Of a DNA stretch of 64,000 nucleotides, positions 51,932 through 62,322 are shown piece by piece. The notes beneath the pieces are model-generated. The model was not told the DNA's origin and made no database searches. It saw nothing but the letters and a program-made list of their open reading frames with translations. The translations under genes were made by a program, and so were the position numbers. This DNA is from a virus, in IMG/VR virus record IMGVR_UViG_3300032315_000747, positions 17,900 through 81,899 of that record. One strand, 5' to 3'. The stretch's first letter is position 1. Every line of letters begins with the position of its first letter.

Positions 51932-53566
51932 TCATTGGCATCCACATTGTCCAGCTTTTGGAGGATTACATGCACACTCCTGCGAGAAGTCGCAAAATCG
52001 CCCTGCACAATTTTCGGGGCCCCCGAAGGTACAAGGTATGGCCACGTTATCACAATTGTTAAGGTTCAACTGATAAGGAATGATAGGATTTACAGCATAA
52101 GATACATTGTGTATAGGTAAAATTTTCAGAATTACGATTTTGAGGATCCCATCACTGGTATTCCCGTTTACGTCAGTTACACTCAACGAAACCGTATGCT
52201 CTTCCTTCTCCCCTTCTACCGATTCAATGTATCCGCTCAAAATTCCATAATTATTGATGATTAATCCGTTTGGCAGAGGATCATGCAAGGTAACAGAAGA
52301 AACGGTCATGGGATTGAATAAGGTTACTCTGACTGGTGCTCCCGCAAATATTGCAGCGAACAGCAATGGTTCCGATCCTTGTGCATCGTAAGGGCTAACC
52401 ATGTCTGTGATCAAAAGGCTAACCAAATTAGGAGAATTTTGATATTTAGGATCATCTAATAACAATAACCCTCTTTTAGCAAGAAACGATACATTGTTTC
52501 TTGTTGCATTATTCCAGATCGCATTAACCGTATCATCAAACTGAAAAGGAGGCAATGCTACGTTATATGCGATGATCGCAGAATGAATAGCTGCTGACAT
52601 CGAAGTTCCGGAAGAAAAGCCACAACTTCCATCTAATTTAGCAGCGTAAATATCTTCTCCGGGTGCCCATCCCGAAAGCTTGCCGCCGTTAGTACTACCT
52701 GACGTTACGCTAATGGCTGATGTTCCGGTATAATCTGAGAAGTCACACGGTAATAGAGAAGAATTGTATGCCCCGACTACGATTGATTCGGGCATTGCTG
52801 CAGGAGTTACATCACCGATGTCAGACCCATCGTTTCCAGAAGCAACCACGATCTGTATTCCTGCTCGGAACAAGGTCTGCATCTTTGCTTCGATGTATTC
52901 GTTTCTTGCAATTGCCCAGCTACAATTCATTATACCATACGAGGTGTTTGTCGCGAAGTCGTTGTATACCGCGTCCATTGCACCCAAGAAATCACTGAGT
53001 CTAGTAGGAACTTCAGTATCAAACAACTTAACTACTTTGAGTTTTGCATTAGTGATTCCGCAAGTTTTACCTACGATCACACTTGCAAGAGCAGTACCGT
53101 GACCTTTTCTATCAACGAAGTCGTCAGTGAGTGAGTACAAGCATTCGATATCTGCACCTTGGAATTCTGGATGATCCAGCTTGATCCCACTGTCTAGTAG
53201 ATATACGACTGCCCCGGCGCCGCTTAATGGAAGCTGGAAGCTAGGAGCATCTAAGTCTACTACAGACCCACTATAAACTTTCCACCAATCTTTTTGATCG
53301 CTAGTTTGAACTGTCTTGCTGCCTTCAGCAGGAAGGACGGGCATTTGGATAGGAATAGTAGTCAACAGTTTGATGTGATTGGTGTGATCATCATCTTTAA
53401 TATGTTCTACGATGTCACTAGCAGGCGGGACTTCTGAACATTCTACTAGTACTACTTTTTCGAACGCATTGAAGCTCTTGATTATAGATGCTCCGCACGA
53501 ATTTAAGTATGAGTTGATGTCTGCGGCTGTAGCACTATTAACAAAGTCAATAATATATTGTTGCAT
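51932..53566 (-). CDS. S8 subtilisin-like protease with Ig-like domain and Cys-rich tail
   Basis: LLDSGI (Asp), GHGT (His), ASGN, SGTSMSA (Ser); C-terminal 8-Cys tail. Confidence 0.9.
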   Translation of the reverse strand: MQQYIIDFVNSATAADINSYLNSCGASIIKSFNAFEKVVLVECSEVPPASDIVEHIKDDDHTNHIKLLTTIPIQMPVLPAEGSKTVQTSDQKDWWKVYSGSVVDLDAPSFQLPLSGAGAVVYLLDSGIKLDHPEFQGADIECLYSLTDDFVDRKGHGTALASVIVGKTCGITNAKLKVVKLFDTEVPTRLSDFLGAMDAVYNDFATNTSYGIMNCSWAIARNEYIEAKMQTLFRAGIQIVVASGNDGSDIGDVTPAAMPESIVVGAYNSSLLPCDFSDYTGTSAISVTSGSTNGGKLSGWAPGEDIYAAKLDGSCGFSSGTSMSAAIHSAIIAYNVALPPFQFDDTVNAIWNNATRNNVSFLAKRGLLLLDDPKYQNSPNLVSLLITDMVSPYDAQGSEPLLFAAIFAGAPVRVTLFNPMTVSSVTLHDPLPNGLIINNYGILSGYIESVEGEKEEHTVSLSVTDVNGNTSDGILKIVILKILPIHNVSYAVNPIIPYQLNLNNCDNVAIPCTFGGPENCAGRFCDFSQECACNPPKAGQCGCQ

Positions 53567-53581
53567 TGTAGTTAATCCCTA

Positions 53582-53812
53582 TTATCCCTGCTGATTTCTT
53601 TTTACTTTATTCCACTTGCCAACAGGACATTCTGCAAAGGGAAGATATGTTTTCGCCGCCATAATACACTTGCATTGAGTACACTGAGTAGTCAATGAAA
53701 CGAAATGTTCGCATGACTTACAAATGTCGTACCTAACATCTCTTTCCTCTTCGGATAGAGGAGCGGCAGCATCTTTTAAATCCTGGAGTCTCTGTTTAAG
53801 TATTTCTATCAT
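53582..53812 (-). CDS. Small Cys-rich protein
   Basis: R..ICKSCEH...QCTQCKC.M..KT.....CPVGKW; late promoter upstream. Confidence 0.7.
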   Translation of the reverse strand: MIEILKQRLQDLKDAAAPLSEEERDVRYDICKSCEHFVSLTTQCTQCKCIMAAKTYLPFAECPVGKWNKVKRNQQG

Positions 53813-53858
53813 AGATTTATTTATCTTTGTCTCACTGAATGCTATAAATAATTTATGC

Positions 53859-54320
53859 ATGTACTCCACGAATGATATCAAATCAATATCTTTTGCAGAA
53901 ATACTTCCTATATGGAAAAACGATCTATGGCCAAATAGAGTTAGTGAGATCACGGCTACTAGCGCCATGTGTTTTTTAGGAGGATATTCTTACGAAAATA
54001 TGGAGAGTAGTCCAACTTTTCTTGGTTACTTCGTGAACAATGAACTAGTTGGCGTGAACAGCGGACACTATACTAAACATAACGATGGGTATCGTTCTAG
54101 GGGATTATACGTATTTCCCGAATTTAGGCGGCAGGGTATAGGAATCGCATTATTGAAGGCAACTATCGCATGGGCTAAAAACGAAAATGCAACAATGTGC
54201 TGGAGTTATCCAAAATATTCTAGTTGGAAAACATATCAGGCTGCTGGATTTATGTTAGCTAGTGACTGGGAAAAATCAGAAATGAGCGACAAGAATGCAT
54301 ATTGTAGGTTTGAATTTTAG
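53859..54320 (+). CDS. GNAT acetyltransferase
   Basis: RGLYVFPEFRRQGIG; TATAAATA at 53843. Confidence 0.85.
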   Translation: MYSTNDIKSISFAEILPIWKNDLWPNRVSEITATSAMCFLGGYSYENMESSPTFLGYFVNNELVGVNSGHYTKHNDGYRSRGLYVFPEFRRQGIGIALLKATIAWAKNENATMCWSYPKYSSWKTYQAAGFMLASDWEKSEMSDKNAYCRFEF

Positions 54321-54808
54321 TACCATTGCCCTTCATTGCGTATTCTCTTAATGAATGTACAGTATACACTAGTTATACCATAACAACGCAATTTAACAGT
54401 GCTAAGCATGCCTCTATCTACAATCTCAGGCAAATAAACAACACTGTTGTTGTCAATAGGCACGTTTCCAGGAACGATAGTTTGGCCTCCAGTAGAGACT
54501 GTCGGGCTTGCTTCTGTAGCAACATTGCTGAATATGAACACGTTAGGGTATAGCTTTCTAGGCTGTGCTAGTAGATAGTCATATGCATCTTGATTTTGAC
54601 AGTTAAGCCAAAATCGATTGCCTTGTAGATAACGATCAGTGACTTCTACCCAATCATTCTCTCTACCAAGATAGAGTTTATCATTAAATCTCCATACATC
54701 AACCATGCAGGAAAACCCGTTATTGAAGGCTTTGCCTATCTGTCCCGGGGTGTTAGCAGACTCAAAGTTCTGCCCGTCATATATACCTTGGTAGCTGATT
54801 ATTAACAC
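54317..54808 (-). CDS. GDPD/PLC-like phosphodiesterase (divergent)
   Basis: GTG start after TATAAATA; LIISYQG...ANTP...VDVW. Confidence 0.5.
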   Translation of the reverse strand: MLIISYQGIYDGQNFESANTPGQIGKAFNNGFSCMVDVWRFNDKLYLGRENDWVEVTDRYLQGNRFWLNCQNQDAYDYLLAQPRKLYPNVFIFSNVATEASPTVSTGGQTIVPGNVPIDNNSVVYLPEIVDRGMLSTVKLRCYGITSVYCTFIKRIRNEGQWY

Positions 54809-54829
54809 AAATGTATTTATACTAATGTT

Positions 54830-54904
54830 TGGAGCGGGTGAGCGGATTCGAACCGCTGACAGCTTCGTTGGCAACGAAGGGCTCTACCACTGAGCTACAC
54901 CCGC
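54830..54904 (-). tRNA. tRNA-Gly(GCC)
   Basis: Cloverleaf; anticodon loop TTGCCAA; encoded CCA. Confidence 0.95.
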
Positions 54905-55025
54905 ATTAACTTCTAGACACATGGGCCCTGCAAGACTGGATCAGTCATTTATCGGTTCTACCAGCAGTTCACCATGTATACACTATATGCCGTCCCCGGA
55001 ATGTTTCATATAATGTGTCTAATTT

Positions 55026-55106
55026 TGGAGCGGATAGGGAGAGTCGAACTCCGGCCTTTCGGATCAGATTGGAAATCTGATGCGTCCCCCTTACGCAACT
55101 ACCCGC
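55026..55106 (-). tRNA. tRNA-Gly(TCC), atypical 8/4 fold with extended variable arm
   Basis: 8-bp acceptor, 4-bp T-stem, loop TTTCCAA, U73-CCA. Confidence 0.8.
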
Positions 55107-55187
55107 ATTAATTTCAAAATTTACTTAATATACTTGTTCTTGACCTCAATGTCAAGAACTATTTTGCCTATTATTAAAAAAAACACA

Positions 55188-55455
55188 GAAGGAAAAAAGT
55201 AAGTGATAGACTGTGCAATCTGCATCGGTGTCTCATACAAGAACAACCCGTCAAACAACTTACAAGCGACAACGTGCAAAACTAACTTATGCTCAAACCA
55301 CAATGTGCAACAAAATAGGTTTGACTCATGCTAGTATGGAGCGTTTCAAGCGCCTGATCAATGTTTCATTACTGAAACGTAAGTGCCTACTCTCGTCTCT
55401 CTTTTCCTTCCGGGTAGTTTACAGGTACTCTAAGAGTCTAACCTGCATAACTACC
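55188..55455 (-). ncRNA. Candidate structured RNA with UUG repeats
   Basis: 12-bp closing stem (55399-55410 / 55188-55199), upstream long hairpin, about 12 UUG triplets. Confidence 0.5.
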
Positions 55456-55512
55456 AAACTCATCGATGATTGTGATCTACCTTAACGTCGGTTAGACCAA
55501 CAATATGCCCCC

Positions 55513-56076
55513 TTAGAGAATGTTCTCGTTAGTGAGCGTAGCAACAGTTGCATCTGAAAACTCAATTTCAGTGCGGACGTTCAACTCGAGGAGTTCGTCC
55601 TGCAACTTCTGCTTCTGCTTCTTAGTAGAAGCCACGATACCCTTGAAACTTTCAAGCACACTTTCGTTAAAGATAGAAGTGTCGACCTTCTCGTCTCGGT
55701 AAGAATAAGCATCTTCTTTGCGGGTACGAATCTTTTCTAGCTTGCCGTAAATCACAGCGGAATCGGTAATGACCGAAGCCTTTGCATACGTGCTGTAGAA
55801 CTGAAGGTCCTTTTCAAGGCGAGCAACGTCAGCAAGACGGTTATCGATGCCTGTGCTATCATTTGCCGACGCAACAGCCTTACGAATCTCGTAAAGGGCA
55901 TCAAGCAAAGCAATACGCCGAGCGAGGTTGCGAGAAAACTTCGCAGATGCGGCACTAATCTCATTAGCAGCGTCTTGGAACTCGTTGATGCTAGCAAAAG
56001 CATTGAATTCAAGGCCCTTGATAGTTTCGTTGATCGCTACTTGAATAGCGTTGGCCTTGCGTAGATTGATCTTCAT
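55513..56076 (-). CDS. Coiled-coil protein
   Basis: MKINLRKANAIQ...KQKLQDELLELN; AGGA RBS. Confidence 0.75.
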   Translation of the reverse strand: MKINLRKANAIQVAINETIKGLEFNAFASINEFQDAANEISAASAKFSRNLARRIALLDALYEIRKAVASANDSTGIDNRLADVARLEKDLQFYSTYAKASVITDSAVIYGKLEKIRTRKEDAYSYRDEKVDTSIFNESVLESFKGIVASTKKQKQKLQDELLELNVRTEIEFSDATVATLTNENIL

Positions 56077-56151
56077 TTGTGTTTCCTTTGTTTCTATTTT
56101 CTCACTATAGTATAAACGATCACTGTTGTACAGTGTTTTGGGTATTAAAAA

Positions 56152-56226
56152 TGGCGCCGATGAGGGATTGCGACACCCCGACCTTCCGCGTGACAGGCGG
56201 ACGCTCTTCCTCTGAGCTACACCGGC
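56152..56226 (-). tRNA. tRNA-Asp(GTC), non-canonical T-loop
   Basis: Anticodon loop CTGTCAC; T-loop GTCGCAA. Confidence 0.8.
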
Positions 56227-56279
56227 ATTATCTTTTTACACGATACTACAATACGATAGTCAATCGCTTTGGGTAAGTT

Positions 56280-56356
56280 TGGTGACAGTAGTTAGACTCG
56301 AACTAACGACATTTGACGTATGAGGCCAACGCTCTAACCAACTGAGCTATACTGTC
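56280..56356 (-). tRNA. tRNA-Met(CAT), elongator type
   Basis: Loop CTCATAC; paired 1:72, no initiator GGG stem. Confidence 0.9.
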
Positions 56357-56362
56357 ATTGAA

Positions 56363-56438
56363 TGGTACTAGGTATTGGATTTGAACCAATCCACCGAGTT
56401 CCACAAACTCGTGTGCTAACCGCTAACACTAACCTAGC
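56363..56438 (-). tRNA. tRNA-His(GTG)
   Basis: Loop TTGTGGA; G1:U72, A73, no encoded G-1. Confidence 0.92.
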
Positions 56439-56440
56439 TT

Positions 56441-56475
56441 AGATTTAAAAGTCAGATACTCTACCTAACTATACC
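56441..56475 (-). pseudogene. tRNA-Lys(TTT) remnant
   Basis: TAGGTAGAGTATCTGACTTTTAAATC aligns to the D/anticodon region of tRNA-Lys(CTT) at 57182. Confidence 0.55.
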
Positions 56476-56489
56476 AATGATATAAAGAT

Positions 56490-56564
56490 TGGTAGTCGAT
56501 GTAGGTACCGCCCCTACCGTCTCCCGCTTATCAGGCGGGTGCTTTACTTCTAAGCTAATCGACC
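56490..56564 (-). tRNA. tRNA-Ile(GAT), non-canonical D/T loops
   Basis: Loop CTGATAA; T-loop GGCGGTA; D-loop lacks GG. Confidence 0.8.
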
Positions 56565-56609
56565 TTTATTATACTAGAGTTCGAGCGTGACAATTTACTT
56601 TAGTGTACC

Positions 56610-57002
56610 TTAGCAGAAGGTCTTCAATGACTTGATGTCATCACCGATGAAGTCTTCACGAATCGGGCCGATGCCAAGACAAACCGTGGTCGGTTCATCA
56701 AATACCGTGAAGCCCGCGTCCGTTACAAGACTGGTTCCGCATACATTCTTGTATGCTTCTTGCAATGCCTTCAACTCATCAACCGTATCTACGATCAGAG
56801 TGATCTTATATGCATGGTCGCTTTCACGATATGCTCTAGCCTGATCTAGGAATCTCATAGGATCTCCTACAGGACCAGACTTCATAGCATCCCAATAAGC
56901 GTGCAGGTAAGCATGTCCGCTCATCGAAGCAAGTTTGCCACGTATGCCGTTCATTTTCTTTACCGATTCAAGGGCAAAGATAGCGTACATCTTATACTTC
57001 AT
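56610..57002 (-). CDS. Peptidyl-tRNA hydrolase type 2 (Pth2)
   Basis: GKLASMSGHA, KITL, VTDAGFTVF.EPT.VCLGIGP. Confidence 0.85.
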   Translation of the reverse strand: MKYKMYAIFALESVKKMNGIRGKLASMSGHAYLHAYWDAMKSGPVGDPMRFLDQARAYRESDHAYKITLIVDTVDELKALQEAYKNVCGTSLVTDAGFTVFDEPTTVCLGIGPIREDFIGDDIKSLKTFC

Positions 57003-57160
57003 TTATTTTTCTTTCTATTGCCGTAATGCTTTTTCCACGCTTCGTCTGTATAGGCAGGACCGTTTCTACTCAGGAGAAGTTCTCGTTCCTCAGGATCCAT
57101 ACTCACCCATTCTTGACGAGTATATCTCTTACCCGTTTTAGCTAATACTAATCCAGACAT
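56999..57160 (-). CDS. Small hypothetical protein
   Basis: AGGAGGAG RBS before MSGLVLAK. Confidence 0.55.
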   Translation of the reverse strand: MSGLVLAKTGKRYTRQEWVSMDPEERELLLSRNGPAYTDEAWKKHYGNRKKNK

Positions 57161-57181
57161 TTTCTCCTCCTTTCTAATGTT

Positions 57182-57257
57182 TGGTGGGCGCAGCAGGAAT
57201 TGAACCTGCGACATTCTGATTAAGAGTCAGACACTCTACCTACTGAGTTATGCGCCC
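57182..57257 (-). tRNA. tRNA-Lys(CTT)
   Basis: Loop CTCTTAA; CCA. Confidence 0.95.
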
Positions 57258-57368
57258 AAAATTTCTTTGTCTTTACCAAACGTATATCGGCAGTCACACA
57301 TGCATTCTCTTAGCCGATTCGCCCTATGTCATCAGGTGACTTCAATCGGTACCGAGGTGTTTAGTATT

Positions 57369-57450
57369 TGGAGCACCGGGTAGGAATCGAACCTACTCTA
57401 CTTACGAAGCGGATTTGCAGTCCACCGCATTCCCAATCTGCCACCGGTGC
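57369..57450 (-). tRNA. tRNA-Cys(GCA) with 12-nt variable region
   Basis: Loop CTGCAAA; U73; variable region TTCGTAAGTAGA. Confidence 0.88.
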
Positions 57451-57457
57451 ATTATTC

Positions 57458-57709
57458 TTAAGTATACGATGCAAAATCTGCTGCGATTTTGGCATGTCGT
57501 TCATACCAAAGATGGCCGCTACTAACTGCTACGAGATAGTCAGATGCCCAATTTTTAGGATCCTCAATACCATGCCTAGTATCACATTCAATCGCCACTT
57601 TACGAAGACGCTTGATTGCTGCGTTGAGCGTGTTACGATGTGCTTTGGTGTTGCGAAGATCAGTCACTGTCCGCATTGCGGCAGCTAATTCATGTACCGA
57701 ATCGCTCAT
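57458..57709 (-). CDS. Hypothetical early protein
   Basis: AAGGA RBS; early promoter at 57737-57774. Confidence 0.65.
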   Translation of the reverse strand: MSDSVHELAAAMRTVTDLRNTKAHRNTLNAAIKRLRKVAIECDTRHGIEDPKNWASDYLVAVSSGHLWYERHAKIAADFASYT

Positions 57710-57736
57710 GTATCGTTCCTTTGCTCTATTCAATCT

Positions 57737-57774
57737 CTATGATTCAATATAGCAAAACGGGTAACCAATGTCAA
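57737..57774 (-). promoter_or_regulatory. Early promoter repeat
   Basis: Reverse complement TTGACATTGGTTACCCGTTTTGCTATATTGAATCATAG. Confidence 0.75.
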
Positions 57775-57915
57775 CCTTTTTCGAAGGTCTCAGCTAGCTT
57801 GTTGAACTTTTGCATCATCGCATCTCGTTTCGCATACACGACGAATCCTTTGGAACATCATATACTTGATATCCTTATGAAGTCACCACTAACAAGCAGC
57901 TAAACAACCGATTGT

Positions 57916-58908
57916 TTAGCGTCTCCACCAAAGATAGCGCCTGACGAACTTGTCCATCCAAGCTTGCTGTGGCCCACTTAGTTCATCGTATACATATGCG
58001 GTAAAGAGTTCGGCGAAAAATTCTAAAGTATTGGTGCGGGCGTAATCAGTCGGGAACCAATCGTCTCCGTTCTTTGACCACGAAAGAGAAAAATATTTGA
58101 TCAGCGACGGGAAGAATGAACTCGGGACGCTCTGGTGTAGAATGTGGCCCAATTCATGAATGACCGTCTCGGCCATATCTGCCGCAGGCCTTCGGCTGTC
58201 TACCCATATCCGTCCAAAACCTAACATCGGAGCTATTCCAGTACTATCGGTGGGCAATTCGAAAAATTCTACTTTAGCAGAACGGATCAATGGGATCAGG
58301 CCATGATTGTCGAGTAGATCACACGCTTGACGGAAGGCGCGTTCACAGTCACGAAAATCGTATTCATCAATCGTCCCGTCAATGAGACCACGTACCCCTT
58401 TGTATACAATTTTCTGTGCTTTTTTAGGTCCGTAAAGTCCCAAATTGATTGGGATATTTTTGAGATCAAGCTTGAGCATTGGCTCTTTCTCATATTCGTC
58501 GTCATCATCCCAGCCTTCATAGATCGGGTCGATTGATTCTGTTTTATCTCTGCGTTGCAGTCTGGCCGCCCGCGCCGAAATGATGTAGGTCAGAATATTG
58601 CCGATCTCGTGTTTTCTCGCGATGTTTGATAGCTCTGCTTTTTGCTTCTCAAGTTTAGTGATCTGTTCGTGAGAAGAAGTACCTCTGATCTGATCCTCTA
58701 TTTGGGCCCACGCCGCCGCTAGTTCAGTCGCGATTTGGTGCTTTTTTTGATTTGTTTCAGGAGAACCATAACGCGGATAATCTGTCCGCTTATCACGCGC
58801 AAATTCACCAGATACTGGAAAAGTATCGGGTGCTCTTTGATCTGGGCCTTGGGTATGAATACCCTCACAGATCGAGATTAGTTTTCGCATGTCTGTACGA
58901 CTATCCAT
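57916..58908 (-). CDS. Zincin metallopeptidase-like late protein
   Basis: VIHELGHILH...YARTN..EFFAE; ATAAATA and GAGGA upstream of ATG 58908 (the longer ORF start lies inside a tRNA). Confidence 0.7.
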   Translation of the reverse strand: MDSRTDMRKLISICEGIHTQGPDQRAPDTFPVSGEFARDKRTDYPRYGSPETNQKKHQIATELAAAWAQIEDQIRGTSSHEQITKLEKQKAELSNIARKHEIGNILTYIISARAARLQRRDKTESIDPIYEGWDDDDEYEKEPMLKLDLKNIPINLGLYGPKKAQKIVYKGVRGLIDGTIDEYDFRDCERAFRQACDLLDNHGLIPLIRSAKVEFFELPTDSTGIAPMLGFGRIWVDSRRPAADMAETVIHELGHILHQSVPSSFFPSLIKYFSLSWSKNGDDWFPTDYARTNTLEFFAELFTAYVYDELSGPQQAWMDKFVRRYLWWRR

Positions 58909-58947
58909 AAATAGTATCCTCAAGGTTGATACACTATTTATGCCATA

Positions 58948-59038
58948 TGGTGGAGGGTGAGGGATTCGAACCCTCGGTACCTTTGAAAGGTACAATGGTT
59001 TAGCAAACCAGCCCATTCGGCCACTCTGGCAACCCTCC
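58948..59038 (-). tRNA. tRNA-Ser(GCT)
   Basis: Loop TTGCTAA; long V-arm. Confidence 0.93.
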
Positions 59039-59427
59039 TAGATATTCAGATGCTTTTTTGCATTCACGATGTAAGCATCAATTCTTTCTTTTCCGATCGG
59101 GTTCATTGAATGCACCATATAGTTGGGAAACATTAACCCTATTTCAGCGCAATGATGTACCAACCATTTAGCACAATCGTAACCTGATTTTTCAACACCA
59201 TAGTCTACATGTTCCTTACCTTCACACTCTTGAAGCATTGCTACATAGTGTTCATCAGCTAGGTCATGGTCGAACGTGACAAAGTTTGGAATACCGTTAT
59301 TAATGATGCAATCAACGAATTCGTCATAACTACGAACAACCTCATAGACATGGTCACGGGGAATCTGTACCCAAAGCACATCGTTTGGGCAACGAATATC
59401 GTCTAGAAAAAGATAGTATCCAGGCAT
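59038..59427 (-). CDS. Cyclic-phosphate-processing receiver-like domain protein
   Basis: LFLDDIR, TFDHDL, SGYDCAKWL, VHSMNPIG. Confidence 0.75.
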   Translation of the reverse strand: MPGYYLFLDDIRCPNDVLWVQIPRDHVYEVVRSYDEFVDCIINNGIPNFVTFDHDLADEHYVAMLQECEGKEHVDYGVEKSGYDCAKWLVHHCAEIGLMFPNYMVHSMNPIGKERIDAYIVNAKKHLNI

Positions 59428-59457
59428 TGTCTTTCCTTGATTTCATACGAACAATAT

Positions 59458-59541
59458 TGGTGGGGGAAGTAGGACTCGAACCTACGAAGCTTTCGCAGCG
59501 GATTTACAGTCCGCCCCCTTTGCCGCTCGGGACATTCCCCC
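59458..59541 (-). tRNA. tRNA-Tyr(GTA)
   Basis: Loop CTGTAAA; V-arm. Confidence 0.95.
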
Positions 59542-59552
59542 GTATATTATGT

Positions 59553-59643
59553 TGGAGGAAGCGGTGGGATTCGAACCCACGGAACCCTTTCAGGTTCATC
59601 GCATTTCAAGTGCGGTGCCATAAACCAACTCGACCACGCTTCC
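59553..59643 (-). tRNA. tRNA-Ser(TGA)
   Basis: Loop CTTGAAA; V-arm. Confidence 0.93.
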
Positions 59644-59653
59644 GTATTAATAT

Positions 59654-60154
59654 TTATGTAGCTACTTTAGCCGCAGACTTTTTCTGTCTGTATTCTCGGT
59701 CATACGCTCTACCGTTGCCTCTATTTTTACTTTTGTAAGTAGGTAGCTGTGCATCACAGTTACAACACACTAATCTAAAATTCTCAATTCTATTATCAGT
59801 GCTATCTCCGGAGATATGATCGCATACTAGCGGAATCGGCTGACCTTGCCACTCTTCGGTTCCGCACATACTGCACTTATTCCCAGTTTCTTCTATTAAG
59901 TACGCTCTTGCATGCCTCCTAGCTACTGTTTCACAATAATCGCTTAATTTACCATTTTCAACTATGTCTTTTCTACGAGCAGAAATTTTGGCCTCATCGT
60001 GCTTTCCTTTGTTCCAAGCAACTGTTCCCTTTTTAGCACCTGCATTTGGAGAATGCTTATGCTTTATTCGGTTAGGATTGTTCTTGCAACTCATTTCGTG
60101 AGCCGTTAGCGAACCCTTATTTGATATTTCTCGTTCACAATACTGACACTTCAT
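59654..60154 (-). CDS. HNH homing endonuclease
   Basis: CQYC...H...C, AWNKG, CSMCG, DHISGD..DN..ENFRLVCCNC. Confidence 0.88.
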   Translation of the reverse strand: MKCQYCEREISNKGSLTAHEMSCKNNPNRIKHKHSPNAGAKKGTVAWNKGKHDEAKISARRKDIVENGKLSDYCETVARRHARAYLIEETGNKCSMCGTEEWQGQPIPLVCDHISGDSTDNRIENFRLVCCNCDAQLPTYKSKNRGNGRAYDREYRQKKSAAKVAT

Positions 60155-60227
60155 AGTAATCTCCTTACTACTATTTATGCTTTATTGCAAATAAACAGCA
60201 AATAAGTGCGTTTAACCATAAGAAAGT

Positions 60228-60268
60228 TGGTGCGCCCGAGAGGATTTGAACCGCTCACCCACGCTTCC
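60228..60268 (-). pseudogene. Chimeric tRNA remnant
   Basis: tRNA-Ser-like 5' end GGAAGCGTGG joined to a different T-arm/3' end GGTTCAAATCCTCTCGGGCGCACCA. Confidence 0.65.
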
Positions 60269-60282
60269 ATATTAATATTTAT

Positions 60283-60960
60283 TTAATCACATTCGGCAAC
60301 TAAAGAAAGTCCTTCAATTAGTGGTCGCATAGACTTTCTGATATTTCTGATCTTCATCATTTCCGGAATGATTTTATTTCTAAGTACGTTTCTTTCATGA
60401 CAGTTCAACATGTTGGTCTCGTCTTCTACCCATTCAAGTTTGTTAGATAGTGCAGTGTAAATTAAATCTGCCTTTTCTACCTCTAAGAGAGGCTTATACT
60501 TGACATAATTCTTTTCTGTTTCTGATAGCTTCTGCATGACCAGATTCTTAGAACCTCGCATGGAAGCCATGAAGTATTGCTCTAAATTGTCATCATAATG
60601 ATGTGCAGTTAGTACTACATTTTTCCCAGAAAAGTTACTTAACGTGTCGTCAACGAATTTCCATCTTTGTTTCCTTGCCTCATGCTCTTGGTTGGAAATA
60701 TTAGCTAAACCGTTGCCATACCCTGAGTAGAATCTAAGATTGTATGTTTGTGCATACGAGATAACTACATTCATGTCGCTGAAGTCAGATGAACGGATCA
60801 TGTGCCTGAAATGAATCGCGATGGTGTCTGAACGGATTTTTCTTACTAGGTCCAGAAGAACCATACTATCAACACCGCCTGATACCATGACAAACACGTT
60901 ATCATATTTGTCTAGTTCAATGGAGATTTCTTTTTTGAGCTTTCTCCAAGATACGGGCAT
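60283..60960 (-). CDS. tilS: tRNA(Ile)-lysidine synthetase (catalytic domain only)
   Basis: VSGGVDSMVLL, HFRH, AR..R, LTAHHYDD..E, KPLL, WVEDETN, RNVLR..IIP. Confidence 0.88.
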   Translation of the reverse strand: MPVSWRKLKKEISIELDKYDNVFVMVSGGVDSMVLLDLVRKIRSDTIAIHFRHMIRSSDFSDMNVVISYAQTYNLRFYSGYGNGLANISNQEHEARKQRWKFVDDTLSNFSGKNVVLTAHHYDDNLEQYFMASMRGSKNLVMQKLSETEKNYVKYKPLLEVEKADLIYTALSNKLEWVEDETNMLNCHERNVLRNKIIPEMMKIRNIRKSMRPLIEGLSLVAECD

Positions 60961-60979
60961 GATTGTCTCTCGTTAAAAA

Positions 60980-61055
60980 TGGTGCGCCGTGAGGGATTCG
61001 AACCCCCAACCTGCGGATTATGAGTCCGACGCTCTAACCGTTGAGCTAACAGCGC
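60980..61055 (-). tRNA. tRNA(CAT), probably Ile2
   Basis: Loop CTCATAA; C4:G69; directly upstream of tilS. Confidence 0.85.
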
Positions 61056-61356: not shown

Positions 61357-61649
61357 TGGTATGAGCGGGGGGACTCGAACCCCCACGGAGTACTCCAACG
61401 GATTTTCTTACCACTATAGCTTTCGCTACCTTCGCAGTTTGTGGTCTGGACTATACCTTCACCGTTGCTTTTGCTTTAGGTGCTCGCCGTCTAGTCTCTA
61501 CACGTTCAAAGATATTTCTATCTAAGCTTCGCTCGGGATTGCCATCTTACAGGGTTCCCCGAATTTGACGAGTTCTACTCTACGGGTTTCCCCGAAGGCA
61601 CTCAAATTATGTCTAAGTCCGGTGCGTCTACCAATTCCGCCACGCTCAC
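61357..61649 (-). tRNA. tRNA-Leu(TAA), intron-containing (exons 61615-61649 and 61357-61406)
   Basis: Joined exons give GTGAGCG...GGACTT^AAAATCCG...CGCTCATACCA. Confidence 0.9.
61407..61614 (-). ncRNA. Group I self-splicing intron (208 nt)
   Basis: Follows exon U and ends in omega-G; core TAGAGACTAG (R) and AAGGTATAGTCC (S). Confidence 0.88.
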
Positions 61650-61869: not shown

Positions 61870-62265
61870 TTAAGAGAAGTTTACGACGCCTGAATCAATG
61901 ACAGGATGTTCATCATCGGTTCTGTCAACAATCGTATATGCAAACTTTGTGGTGCCTAATTCCTTGAGCATACCTGCTACATCACCAAGCATGAAGTTTT
62001 TGCACGAATATAAATCGAACTTGTAAAAGGCAGGAGTGCCGCCCCAGAAATGAATGCTAGAATGGCTAGTCGTGATGCCCACGATACCGGTAACACCTTC
62101 GTTACCTTCATCATTGCACCATTTACAGGTTGGAGCGATAAACACTTCCATGTCAACTGCTGCGACTAATCGCAAAAACCAATCTTCCAAAAAACTAACA
62201 TAGTCTTCTTTTGGAGCATTTTCTAGGTATCCTGTAACAAGGATGTGTTTGTGAACGTCAGCCAA
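61870..62265 (-). CDS. speD: S-adenosylmethionine decarboxylase proenzyme
   Basis: HKHILV, GVTGIVGITTSHSSIHFW, DLYSCK; TTG start after GAAAGG; related Arg/Orn decarboxylase activities cannot be excluded. Confidence 0.75.
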   Translation of the reverse strand: MADVHKHILVTGYLENAPKEDYVSFLEDWFLRLVAAVDMEVFIAPTCKWCNDEGNEGVTGIVGITTSHSSIHFWGGTPAFYKFDLYSCKNFMLGDVAGMLKELGTTKFAYTIVDRTDDEHPVIDSGVVNFS

Positions 62266-62322
62266 CTCATAAACCTTTCTTTCAATTTTACTGTCAGACA
62301 GTAGAGTATTTATCAAAAAAGC

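Follow-up and report, generated by a model that had tools for sequence, protein, structure and literature searches.

A tRNA-Gly(UCC) with an 8/4 acceptor branch in an uncultured freshwater phage, and its relatives in other viral contigs

Introduction

Transfer RNAs (tRNAs) whose acceptor branch is divided into 8 base pairs (bp) of acceptor stem and 4 bp of T stem (8/4) depart, as rare cases, from the otherwise universal 7/5 cloverleaf, and they are in print for serine, histidine, cysteine and selenocysteine tRNAs as well as for allo-tRNAs. Here we describe a tRNA-Gly(UCC) gene of this shape at positions 55026-55106 of a 64,000-nucleotide (nt) stretch of viral DNA (hereafter the window), which comprises bases 17900-81899 of the 81.9-kb viral contig IMGVR_UViG_3300032315_000747 (23% complete according to CheckV). 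The carrier of the gene is an uncultured freshwater phage, and the gene specifies a genuine 8/4 tRNA and no degenerate copy of a 7/5 one. In their main text, Mukai and colleagues treat 8/4 allo-tRNAs, tRNA-Ser, tRNA-His and selC* tRNA-Cys and name no tRNA-Gly (Mukai et al., 2017, Nucleic Acids Research, PMC5389517), in agreement with the list of known 8/4 tRNAs given in an initial annotation made from the letters of the window alone. We found no printed 8/4 tRNA-Gly in the full-text literature, in that main text or in the available text of a review (PMC7609411), although the supplementary phage-cluster figures of Mukai et al. could mention one.

The closest described molecules are the 8/4 tRNA-His and tRNA-Ser of alphaproteobacterial phages and some bacteria (Mukai et al., 2017, main text). 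As in these, a 12-bp acceptor branch is split 8/4, the gene lies in a phage tRNA cluster, and the identity elements match the anticodon, which gives the appearance of an ordinary decoder of unusual shape; unlike these, the window tRNA is a glycine tRNA with anticodon UCC. [quoted passage not shown] Their variable arm is long, as is their D stem, which is capped by a tetraloop, and they combine serine or alanine identity with anticodons that do not match it, whereas the window tRNA has a 2-bp variable hairpin, a D stem of 4 bp, a D loop of 7 nt, and a glycine acceptor end and identity that match its anticodon, and it falls outside this group. It likewise falls outside tRNA-Sec and selC* tRNA-Cys, its anticodon being UCC and not UCA or GCA; those two are further marked by a long variable arm and by D and anticodon stems that are extended.

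With the canonical tRNA-Gly(UCC), as represented by the 7/5 copies in loci L011 and L229, the window tRNA shares the GCG/CGC acceptor end, U73 and the UUCGA T loop, and the anticodon stem-loop CAGC-CUUCCAA-GCUG of most members of its family is shared with the canonical one. The canonical molecule differs by its 7-bp acceptor stem, U8, 5-bp T stem and variable loop of 4-5 nt. Another point of comparison is the non-proteogenic tRNA-Gly of staphylococci, in which the D-loop GG and the T-loop consensus are lost and the pairs for EF-Tu are weak. It is likewise an extra tRNA-Gly(UCC) gene with glycine identity elements, from which the window tRNA is set apart by its D loop AAGGGGG, its T loop UUCGACU and its full anticodon arm. 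The gene thus adds a glycine tRNA to the known 8/4 shapes, with direct covariation support.

Evidence for the 8/4 fold

ARAGORN calls a tRNA-Gly(tcc) at exactly 55026-55106, and the stretch matches Rfam family RF00005 with 40.6 bits against a gathering score of 29 (E = 1.5e-07 in a 251-nt stretch); this is the sole Rfam match there, RF01852 not being matched. Direct reading of the sequence confirms what the initial annotation had described, namely an 8-bp acceptor stem, a 4-bp T stem, the loops and an 11-nt variable region containing CC-GAAA-GG (Table 1). By the description of 8/4 tRNAs in Mukai et al. (2017), the acceptor stem has its eighth pair in G8:C, and the T stem ends at 4 bp with C:C at position 49:65; a 7/5 reading would, as had been pointed out beforehand, leave G8 unpaired and require this same C:C mismatch. 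None of the 23 pairs is broken in the window copy, including a G5.U wobble among the eight of the acceptor stem. The alignment to the Rfam model needs the acceptor stem shifted by one base and one T-stem pair deleted, which we regard as a trace of the 8/4 fold, and RNAfold of the single window sequence returns the 8/4 cloverleaf.

An alignment of homologues had been set in advance as the test of the fold, and the homologues support 8/4 and not a 7/5 pseudogene. For an extraction blind to nucleotide 8, sequences were registered from the T arm and taken if they had a UCC loop, a T stem of 4 bp and no fewer than 6 of the 7 outer acceptor pairs, which yielded 103 distinct sequences. A Watson-Crick pair between nucleotide 8 and the base following the T stem (8:65) is present in 60 of them, from 93 loci (both counts rest on the viral matches listed and are lower bounds, that is, at least 60 and at least 93), as G:C in 38, A:U in 15 and U:A in 7. 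These 60 are all the sequences that measure 74-84 nt up to the discriminator. The rival 7/5 pair 49:65 is standard in none of the 60 (CC 31, CU 13, CA 6, AC 4, UC 3, UU 2, AA 1).

A MAFFT alignment of 45 distinct members (alignment A1) gives the same picture. The 8/4 structure pairs 93.8% of its cells, two-sided changes are seen in 17 of the 23 pairs, among them the four of the D stem, and the score of the structure is approached by none of 500 shuffles and by no slid register. The diagnostic pair, 8:78 in the numbering of A1, is G:C in 27, A:U in 13 and U:A in 5 members; that it is formed in 45 of 45 is partly due to the selection of rows, which does not account for the three pair types. The corresponding 7/5 pair, 62:78, is standard in 0 of 45. 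RNAalifold, run without an input structure, recovers an 8-bp acceptor stem and 4-bp D, anticodon and T stems. The covariation at the diagnostic pair bears out the earlier view of the molecule as a non-canonical tRNA.

Anatomy of the family

The family was collected with sequence patterns. The first of these (anticodon loop, GAAA and T arm) returned 9 viral loci, all 9 with a tRNA-Gly(tcc) of 79-82 nt, and a looser one (anticodon loop, 12-30 nt, T arm, 8 nt, UCC) matched at least 119 stretches of viral contigs. A third pattern, anchored on the D loop and not on the T arm, matched at least 118 stretches, mostly not tRNAs, among which further 8/4 members were present. Since the T arm, U73 and the anticodon loop are partly fixed by the patterns, their constancy is no evidence in itself.

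Between the acceptor stem and the D arm, members carry a linker of 2 nt (UU in the window) or of 3-4 nt (ACA, AUA, ACAA or ACUA), followed by a D loop that is almost invariably AAGGGGC (AAGGGGG in the window). CCA is encoded in 57 of the 60 distinct members. The pair 27:43 is standard in 13 of 60 and G.A in 32, the window copy having U:A. Variable regions measure 6-7 nt in 45 members, 10-14 nt in 13 and 16 nt in 2, and a GAAA-capped variable hairpin is found in 10 of the 60. Its stem is 2 bp in the subfamily of the window copy, GC-GAAA-GC replaces CC-GAAA-GG in locus L006, and the stem reaches 5 bp in the Vibrio-phage type (L010, L025). The extended variable arm noted in the initial annotation is therefore real for the window copy; as a trait it belongs to a subfamily only, given the 45 members with 6-7 nt.

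ARAGORN gives no call for 79-nt members in many loci (for instance L014, L022, L026, L030 and L077) and calls the member of L119 with shifted ends. Standard finders thus miss members of the family, among them an unannotated copy in Ralstonia phage RsoM2USA, and inventories of phage tRNAs are incomplete as a consequence.

Distribution and carriers

The family looks phage-borne and almost absent from cellular genomes. When the looser pattern was applied to 32.2 million genome contigs from 185,579 species, it matched 17 stretches, of which 6 belong to the 8/4 class, 3 belong to a second class described below (class A) and the rest are unrelated; the 6 members of the 8/4 class all lie in contigs of metagenome-assembled genomes (MAGs), some of them inside tRNA arrays. 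The carrier phage records span 35 kb to 543 kb. Two of the small ones are near-complete (35.1 kb, with terminal repeats, 100% complete; 34.5 kb, 89% complete) and yield one hit each to the tRNA model, below the Rfam cut-off, which is presumably the 8/4 tRNA-Gly gene.

Cultured phages are among the carriers. Vibrio phage Pontus has a member of 87 nt annotated as tRNA-Gly, and the same match by BLASTN to the 3' part is listed for about 45 further Vibrio phage records; the second is RsoM2USA, whose copy is unannotated in GenBank. Both have laboratory hosts (V. harveyi for Pontus, R. solanacearum for RsoM2USA), which makes the family testable at the bench. Beyond RsoM2USA and the Vibrio Thalassavirus group, the BLASTN matches in GenBank phages lay mostly in the 3' half of canonical tRNA-Gly genes. 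Of the phages examined, Burkholderia phage Mica has only a tRNA fragment, and Sinorhizobium phage Phosso and Escherichia phage SerU-LTIIb have 7/5 genes.

The family is large and has probably spread horizontally. Positions 55026-55118 recur with 0 differences in a contig from another freshwater metagenome, the remainder of which does not match the window; a neighbouring piece of 2 kb from that freshwater run shows 64 differences. A search of 75 carrier loci for a second Gly(UCC) gene detected none in 72 of them. An all-against-all BLASTP of open reading frames (ORFs) of at least 70 amino acids (aa) within 4 kb of the tRNA, over 93 loci, revealed no obligate partner, the largest cluster covering 9 loci. 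That cluster is RNA polymerase omega-like (PF01192). A DUF2828/DUF7788 protein lies near the tRNA in 8 of the 93 loci, and a protein of 187-192 aa (phrog_25230, no Pfam match) lies within 4 kb in 7 of them (window 55513-56076 on the minus strand, L013, L095, L112, L121, L152 and L194).

Proposed function and competing explanations

We consider it probable, at roughly 70%, that the product of the gene is a functional elongator tRNA-Gly(UCC) of the 8/4 plan, used for ordinary decoding of GGA and GGG. RNase P, the CCA enzyme and EF-Tu read the 12-pair helix formed by the acceptor and T stems. Nucleotide 8 is paired with what is normally the closing base of the T stem, so that the stacked helix keeps its 12 pairs (8+4, not 7+5); processing, charging and delivery of the RNA to the ribosome should therefore still take place. 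Charging would be carried out by the bacterial glycyl-tRNA synthetase (GlyRS) of the host, and on the ribosome the tRNA would read GGA and GGG for a phage of 42.5% G+C that uses these codons often. In 57 long ORFs they supply 376 of the 976 glycine codons; the G+C content of the window is 42.5%. The window copy is a member of a subfamily whose variable region contains an inserted mini-hairpin capped by GAAA. The fold and its conservation, the intact identity elements and the phage bias of the family are shown by the sequences, whereas expression, charging and decoding are inferred.

Bacterial glycine identity has been described as residing in U73, G1-C72, C2-G71, C35 and C36 (PMC9976931, available text). 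All of these are present in the window copy, as had been stated from the start. In the family, U73, C35 and C36 are fixed by the search patterns, while G1:C72 and C2:G71, which the patterns leave free, are each kept in 45 of 45 members of A1. The features needed for decoding are also kept, including an anticodon loop of 7 nt, the GG of the D loop and the UUCGA T loop. Together with a canonical tRNA-Gly(GCC) nearby, which reads GGC and GGU, the tRNA-Gly(UCC) covers all four glycine codons.

Several observations weigh against an ordinary decoder, or against the strength of the case for it. A canonical 7/5 tRNA-Gly(UCC) is also present in three carrier loci (L002, L008 and L011), and such a copy beside the 8/4 gene hints at a non-redundant role. 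Plain codon supply leaves unexplained both the retention of the 8/4 fold and the near-absence of the family from cellular genomes. The pair 27:43 is non-standard in 47 of 60 members, and 40.6 bits is the lowest Rfam score among the 20 tRNA hits of the window. No RNA dataset was listed as containing window 53000-61000, and one run presumed to be RNA contained almost none of this stretch, a result that carries no information on expression. The RNAfold energy is not better than that of shuffled sequences (z = -1.3) and is therefore undistinctive, so that support for the fold comes from the homologues. Their sampling also calls for caution, because the rows of A1 were chosen for a paired nucleotide 8 and the patterns fix the anticodon loop plus either the T arm with U73 or the D loop.

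The low Rfam score and the unremarkable folding energy speak for a decayed or chance tRNA-like sequence, in which a 7/5 tRNA-Gly pseudogene would have acquired a C:C mismatch and extra nucleotides in its variable loop. This origin is extremely unlikely, and we rejected it on homologue covariation: the 7/5 pair is found in 0 of 60 homologues, and the eighth acceptor pair covaries through three Watson-Crick types. Every helix is intact in the window copy, an identical copy exists in another freshwater metagenome, and a promoter-like site lies upstream. Judged by its letters, the gene is not a pseudogene, as its helices are intact, its identity elements are kept and a near-consensus promoter match precedes it; this site is a consensus match only, with 3 matches in the region against 2.7 expected from shuffles. 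The idea of a serine-accepting, allo-tRNA-like missense tRNA, which would be charged by seryl-tRNA synthetase through a long variable arm and insert serine at GGA, draws on the known 8/4 allo-tRNAs that accept serine with non-serine anticodons (PMC5389517 and PMC7609411, available text). It is hardly credible here and was rejected on the anatomy of the tRNA, since the variable arm is only 2 bp, 45 of 60 members lack an arm, the acceptor end is the glycine set (GCG/CGC, U73), and the D arm has a 4-bp stem and a 7-nt loop in place of the long stem with tetraloop of allo-tRNAs.

Somewhat less remote, yet still very improbable, is a private glycine carrier, a glycine-charged tRNA that would feed a non-ribosomal aminoacyl-transferase, such as a DNA-modifying enzyme of the Mom-like type or one of another GNAT-fold type. 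The precedent is the Mom protein of phage Mu, whose donor is Gly-tRNA-Gly (PMC13219725, available text), and a GNAT-family gene at 53724-54320 lies about 500 nt from the two glycine tRNAs. Its product gave only weak, generic matches to ordinary acetyl-CoA acetyltransferase families and solved structures (Pfam, PHROGs, sequences from the Protein Data Bank) and not to Mom, and was discarded as a Mom-like partner. The Mom family PF25680 was found in 0 of 50 carrier records, namely the own contig and 49 others, 10 of which are at least 90% complete, which sets the tRNA apart from Mom-type donors. It was also not found in the complete genomes of Pontus and RsoM2USA, whereas the Mu control matched with 2.8e-77. 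A search of the own contig with the Mu Mom protein gave no match; as this contig is 23% complete, absence of Mom from it is weak evidence. In addition, within 4 kb of the tRNA no protein family recurs in over 9 of the 93 carrier loci, and the decoding features are all kept. The initial suggestion of a non-ribosomal glycine donor has therefore found no support in the decoding features, in the 50 records or in a conserved neighbour. Nuclease resistance, the other function suggested at the outset, is a speculative possibility.

A more serious alternative, which we nevertheless hold to be unlikely, is that the 8/4 core is kept because it conceals the tRNA-Gly of the phage from some host factor by which the canonical core is recognised, while translation still works. 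Candidates for such a factor would be a defence or toxin that cleaves or modifies tRNAs, or a host quality-control enzyme, a proposal that shares the low odds of the idea to which it belongs. Equally tentative is the extension to a set of translation-competent tRNAs (Gly, plus Ser, His and perhaps Ala) whose core would go unrecognised by host defences and toxins, after the transfer of one pair from T stem to acceptor stem and a remodelling of linker and variable region. The phage-biased distribution speaks for concealment (at least 119 viral against 17 genome-contig stretches, 6 of them of the class), as do the occurrence beside a canonical Gly(UCC) in L002, L008 and L011, an 8/4 tRNA-Ser(UGA) about 50 nt from the 8/4 tRNA-Gly in L066 and L130, an 8/4-signature tRNA-Ala(UGC) in four carrier loci, and the joint presence of 8/4 Ser and His tRNAs in phage clusters (Mukai et al., 2017, main text). 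If it held, it would explain why the family is common in viruses and nearly absent from cells, why it is sometimes carried together with canonical copies and why it is sometimes the sole tRNA of a small phage; a shape that protects against host systems targeting tRNAs would constitute a new class of phage counter-defence. Against it, no defence directed at the core of tRNA-Gly is known to us, and there is nothing unusual about the anticodon loop, which is the cleavage site of known anticodon nucleases. The acceptor end read by the TacT toxin (U73, G71) is unchanged (PMC9976931, available text). Moreover, the 8/4 signature is unique to tRNA-Gly(UCC) among the 18 ARAGORN tRNAs of the window, the other 17 of the cluster not being 8/4.

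The family amounts to a natural experiment on how far remodelling of the tRNA core can go with GlyRS, EF-Tu and the ribosome presumably still being served, which also makes it of interest for the design of orthogonal tRNAs.

Gene organisation in the window

The tRNA-Gly(UCC) gene belongs to a minus-strand tRNA cluster that occupies the last 10 kb of the window and contains 18 tRNAs according to ARAGORN, or 19 tRNAs and a group I intron according to Rfam. The elements of the gene and its nearest features are listed in Table 1.

Table 1. Elements of the tRNA-Gly(UCC) gene and adjacent features, in window coordinates.
Feature	Position	Strand	Basis
tRNA-Gly(UCC) gene, 81 nt	55026..55106	-	ARAGORN, Rfam RF00005, sequence reading
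Encoded CCA	55026-55028	-	sequence reading
Discriminator U73	55029	-	sequence reading
Acceptor stem, 5' strand GCGGGUAG, tRNA nt 1-8	55099..55106	-	pairs with 55030-55037
Acceptor stem, 3' strand CUAUCCGC, tRNA nt 70-77	55030..55037	-	sequence, fold, homologue alignment
UU linker, 2 nt, ahead of D arm	55097-55098	-	
D arm: stem GCGU/ACGC (4 bp), loop AAGGGGG (7 nt)	55082..55096	-	sequence and fold
A26, between D arm and anticodon arm		-	sequence reading
Anticodon arm: stem UCAGA/UCUGA (5 bp), loop UUUCCAA	55064..55080	-	sequence and ARAGORN
Anticodon UCC	55071-55073	-	within anticodon arm
Variable region, 11 nt, UCCGAAAGGCC; 2-bp stem CC/GG capped by GAAA tetraloop	55053..55063	-	sequence reading
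T arm: stem GGAG/CUCC (4 bp), loop UUCGACU	55038..55052	-	sequence, Rfam alignment, fold
Sigma-70-like promoter match, TTGACA-17 nt-TATATT (11/12), ending 21 nt upstream of the tRNA	55127..55155	-	
Canonical tRNA-Gly(GCC), 121 nt downstream of tRNA-Gly(UCC)	54830..54904	-	ARAGORN; Rfam 69.7 bits

The cluster also holds, on the minus strand, a PTH2-type peptidyl-tRNA hydrolase (56610-57002, E = 2.6e-12), a PP-loop/TilS-like protein of 225 aa (60283-60960, E = 1.6e-34) and an AdoMet-decarboxylase-like protein (61870-62316); the group I intron lies at 61431-61624. The tRNA-His of the window (56363-56438, minus strand) is a 7/5 tRNA with G1.U72 and A73 and without an encoded G-1, a trait that the initial annotation had noted as a signature of an alphaproteobacterial host. 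The combination of G1.U72 and A73 without G-1 has been described for 8/4 tRNA-His as well (Mukai et al., 2017, main text). The tRNA-Cys(GCA) of the window (57369-57450, minus strand, 82 nt) has a normal 7/5 branch and a variable region of 12 nt. Only 2 of the 42 Cys tRNAs in the examined loci reach at least 79 nt, namely this copy and one at 7961-8048 of L034, which carries a GAAA-capped variable hairpin and adjoins the 8/4 tRNA-Gly of that locus. Insertion of GNRA-capped mini-hairpins into class I tRNAs may be a recurring theme of large phages.

Other unusual phage tRNAs

Class A, the second non-canonical class of tRNA-Gly(UCC), comprises at least 38 distinct sequences from at least 51 loci (for instance L015, L024 and L053) and also occurs in genome contigs (L133, L136 and L139). 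Its members measure 71 or 73 nt to the discriminator and combine a 7-bp acceptor stem with a 4-bp T stem. A8 faces C65 in 37 of 38 and U49 faces C65, so that neither position is paired; their D arm, with a loop of about AAGGU, is very small, and there is a single linker nucleotide. The Mom family PF25680 was not found in 48 class A records. Class A and the 8/4 class never occur in the same locus.

The tRNA-Ser(UGA) genes at 88-172 of L066 (minus strand) and 7868-7952 of L130 (plus strand) combine G73 with an acceptor stem of 8 bp and a T stem of 4 bp, and their best Rfam match is the tRNA-Sec model with 41.6 bits, below its cut-off of 47. The former lies near the end of a record classed as provirus, the latter in a 448-kb Luteibacter MAG contig. 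The 8/4 signature was also seen in tRNA-Ala(UGC) genes at L109 9463-9537, L114 11204-11278, L067 6563-6637, L072 203-277 and L093 4807-4881. In these, the base that follows a T stem of 4 bp is the partner of G8, and A.C stands at 49:65; further traits are G3.U70 and a mismatch, A7.G66. Altogether, 12 genes other than Gly(UCC) bear the 8/4 signature among the 1066 ARAGORN tRNAs scanned.

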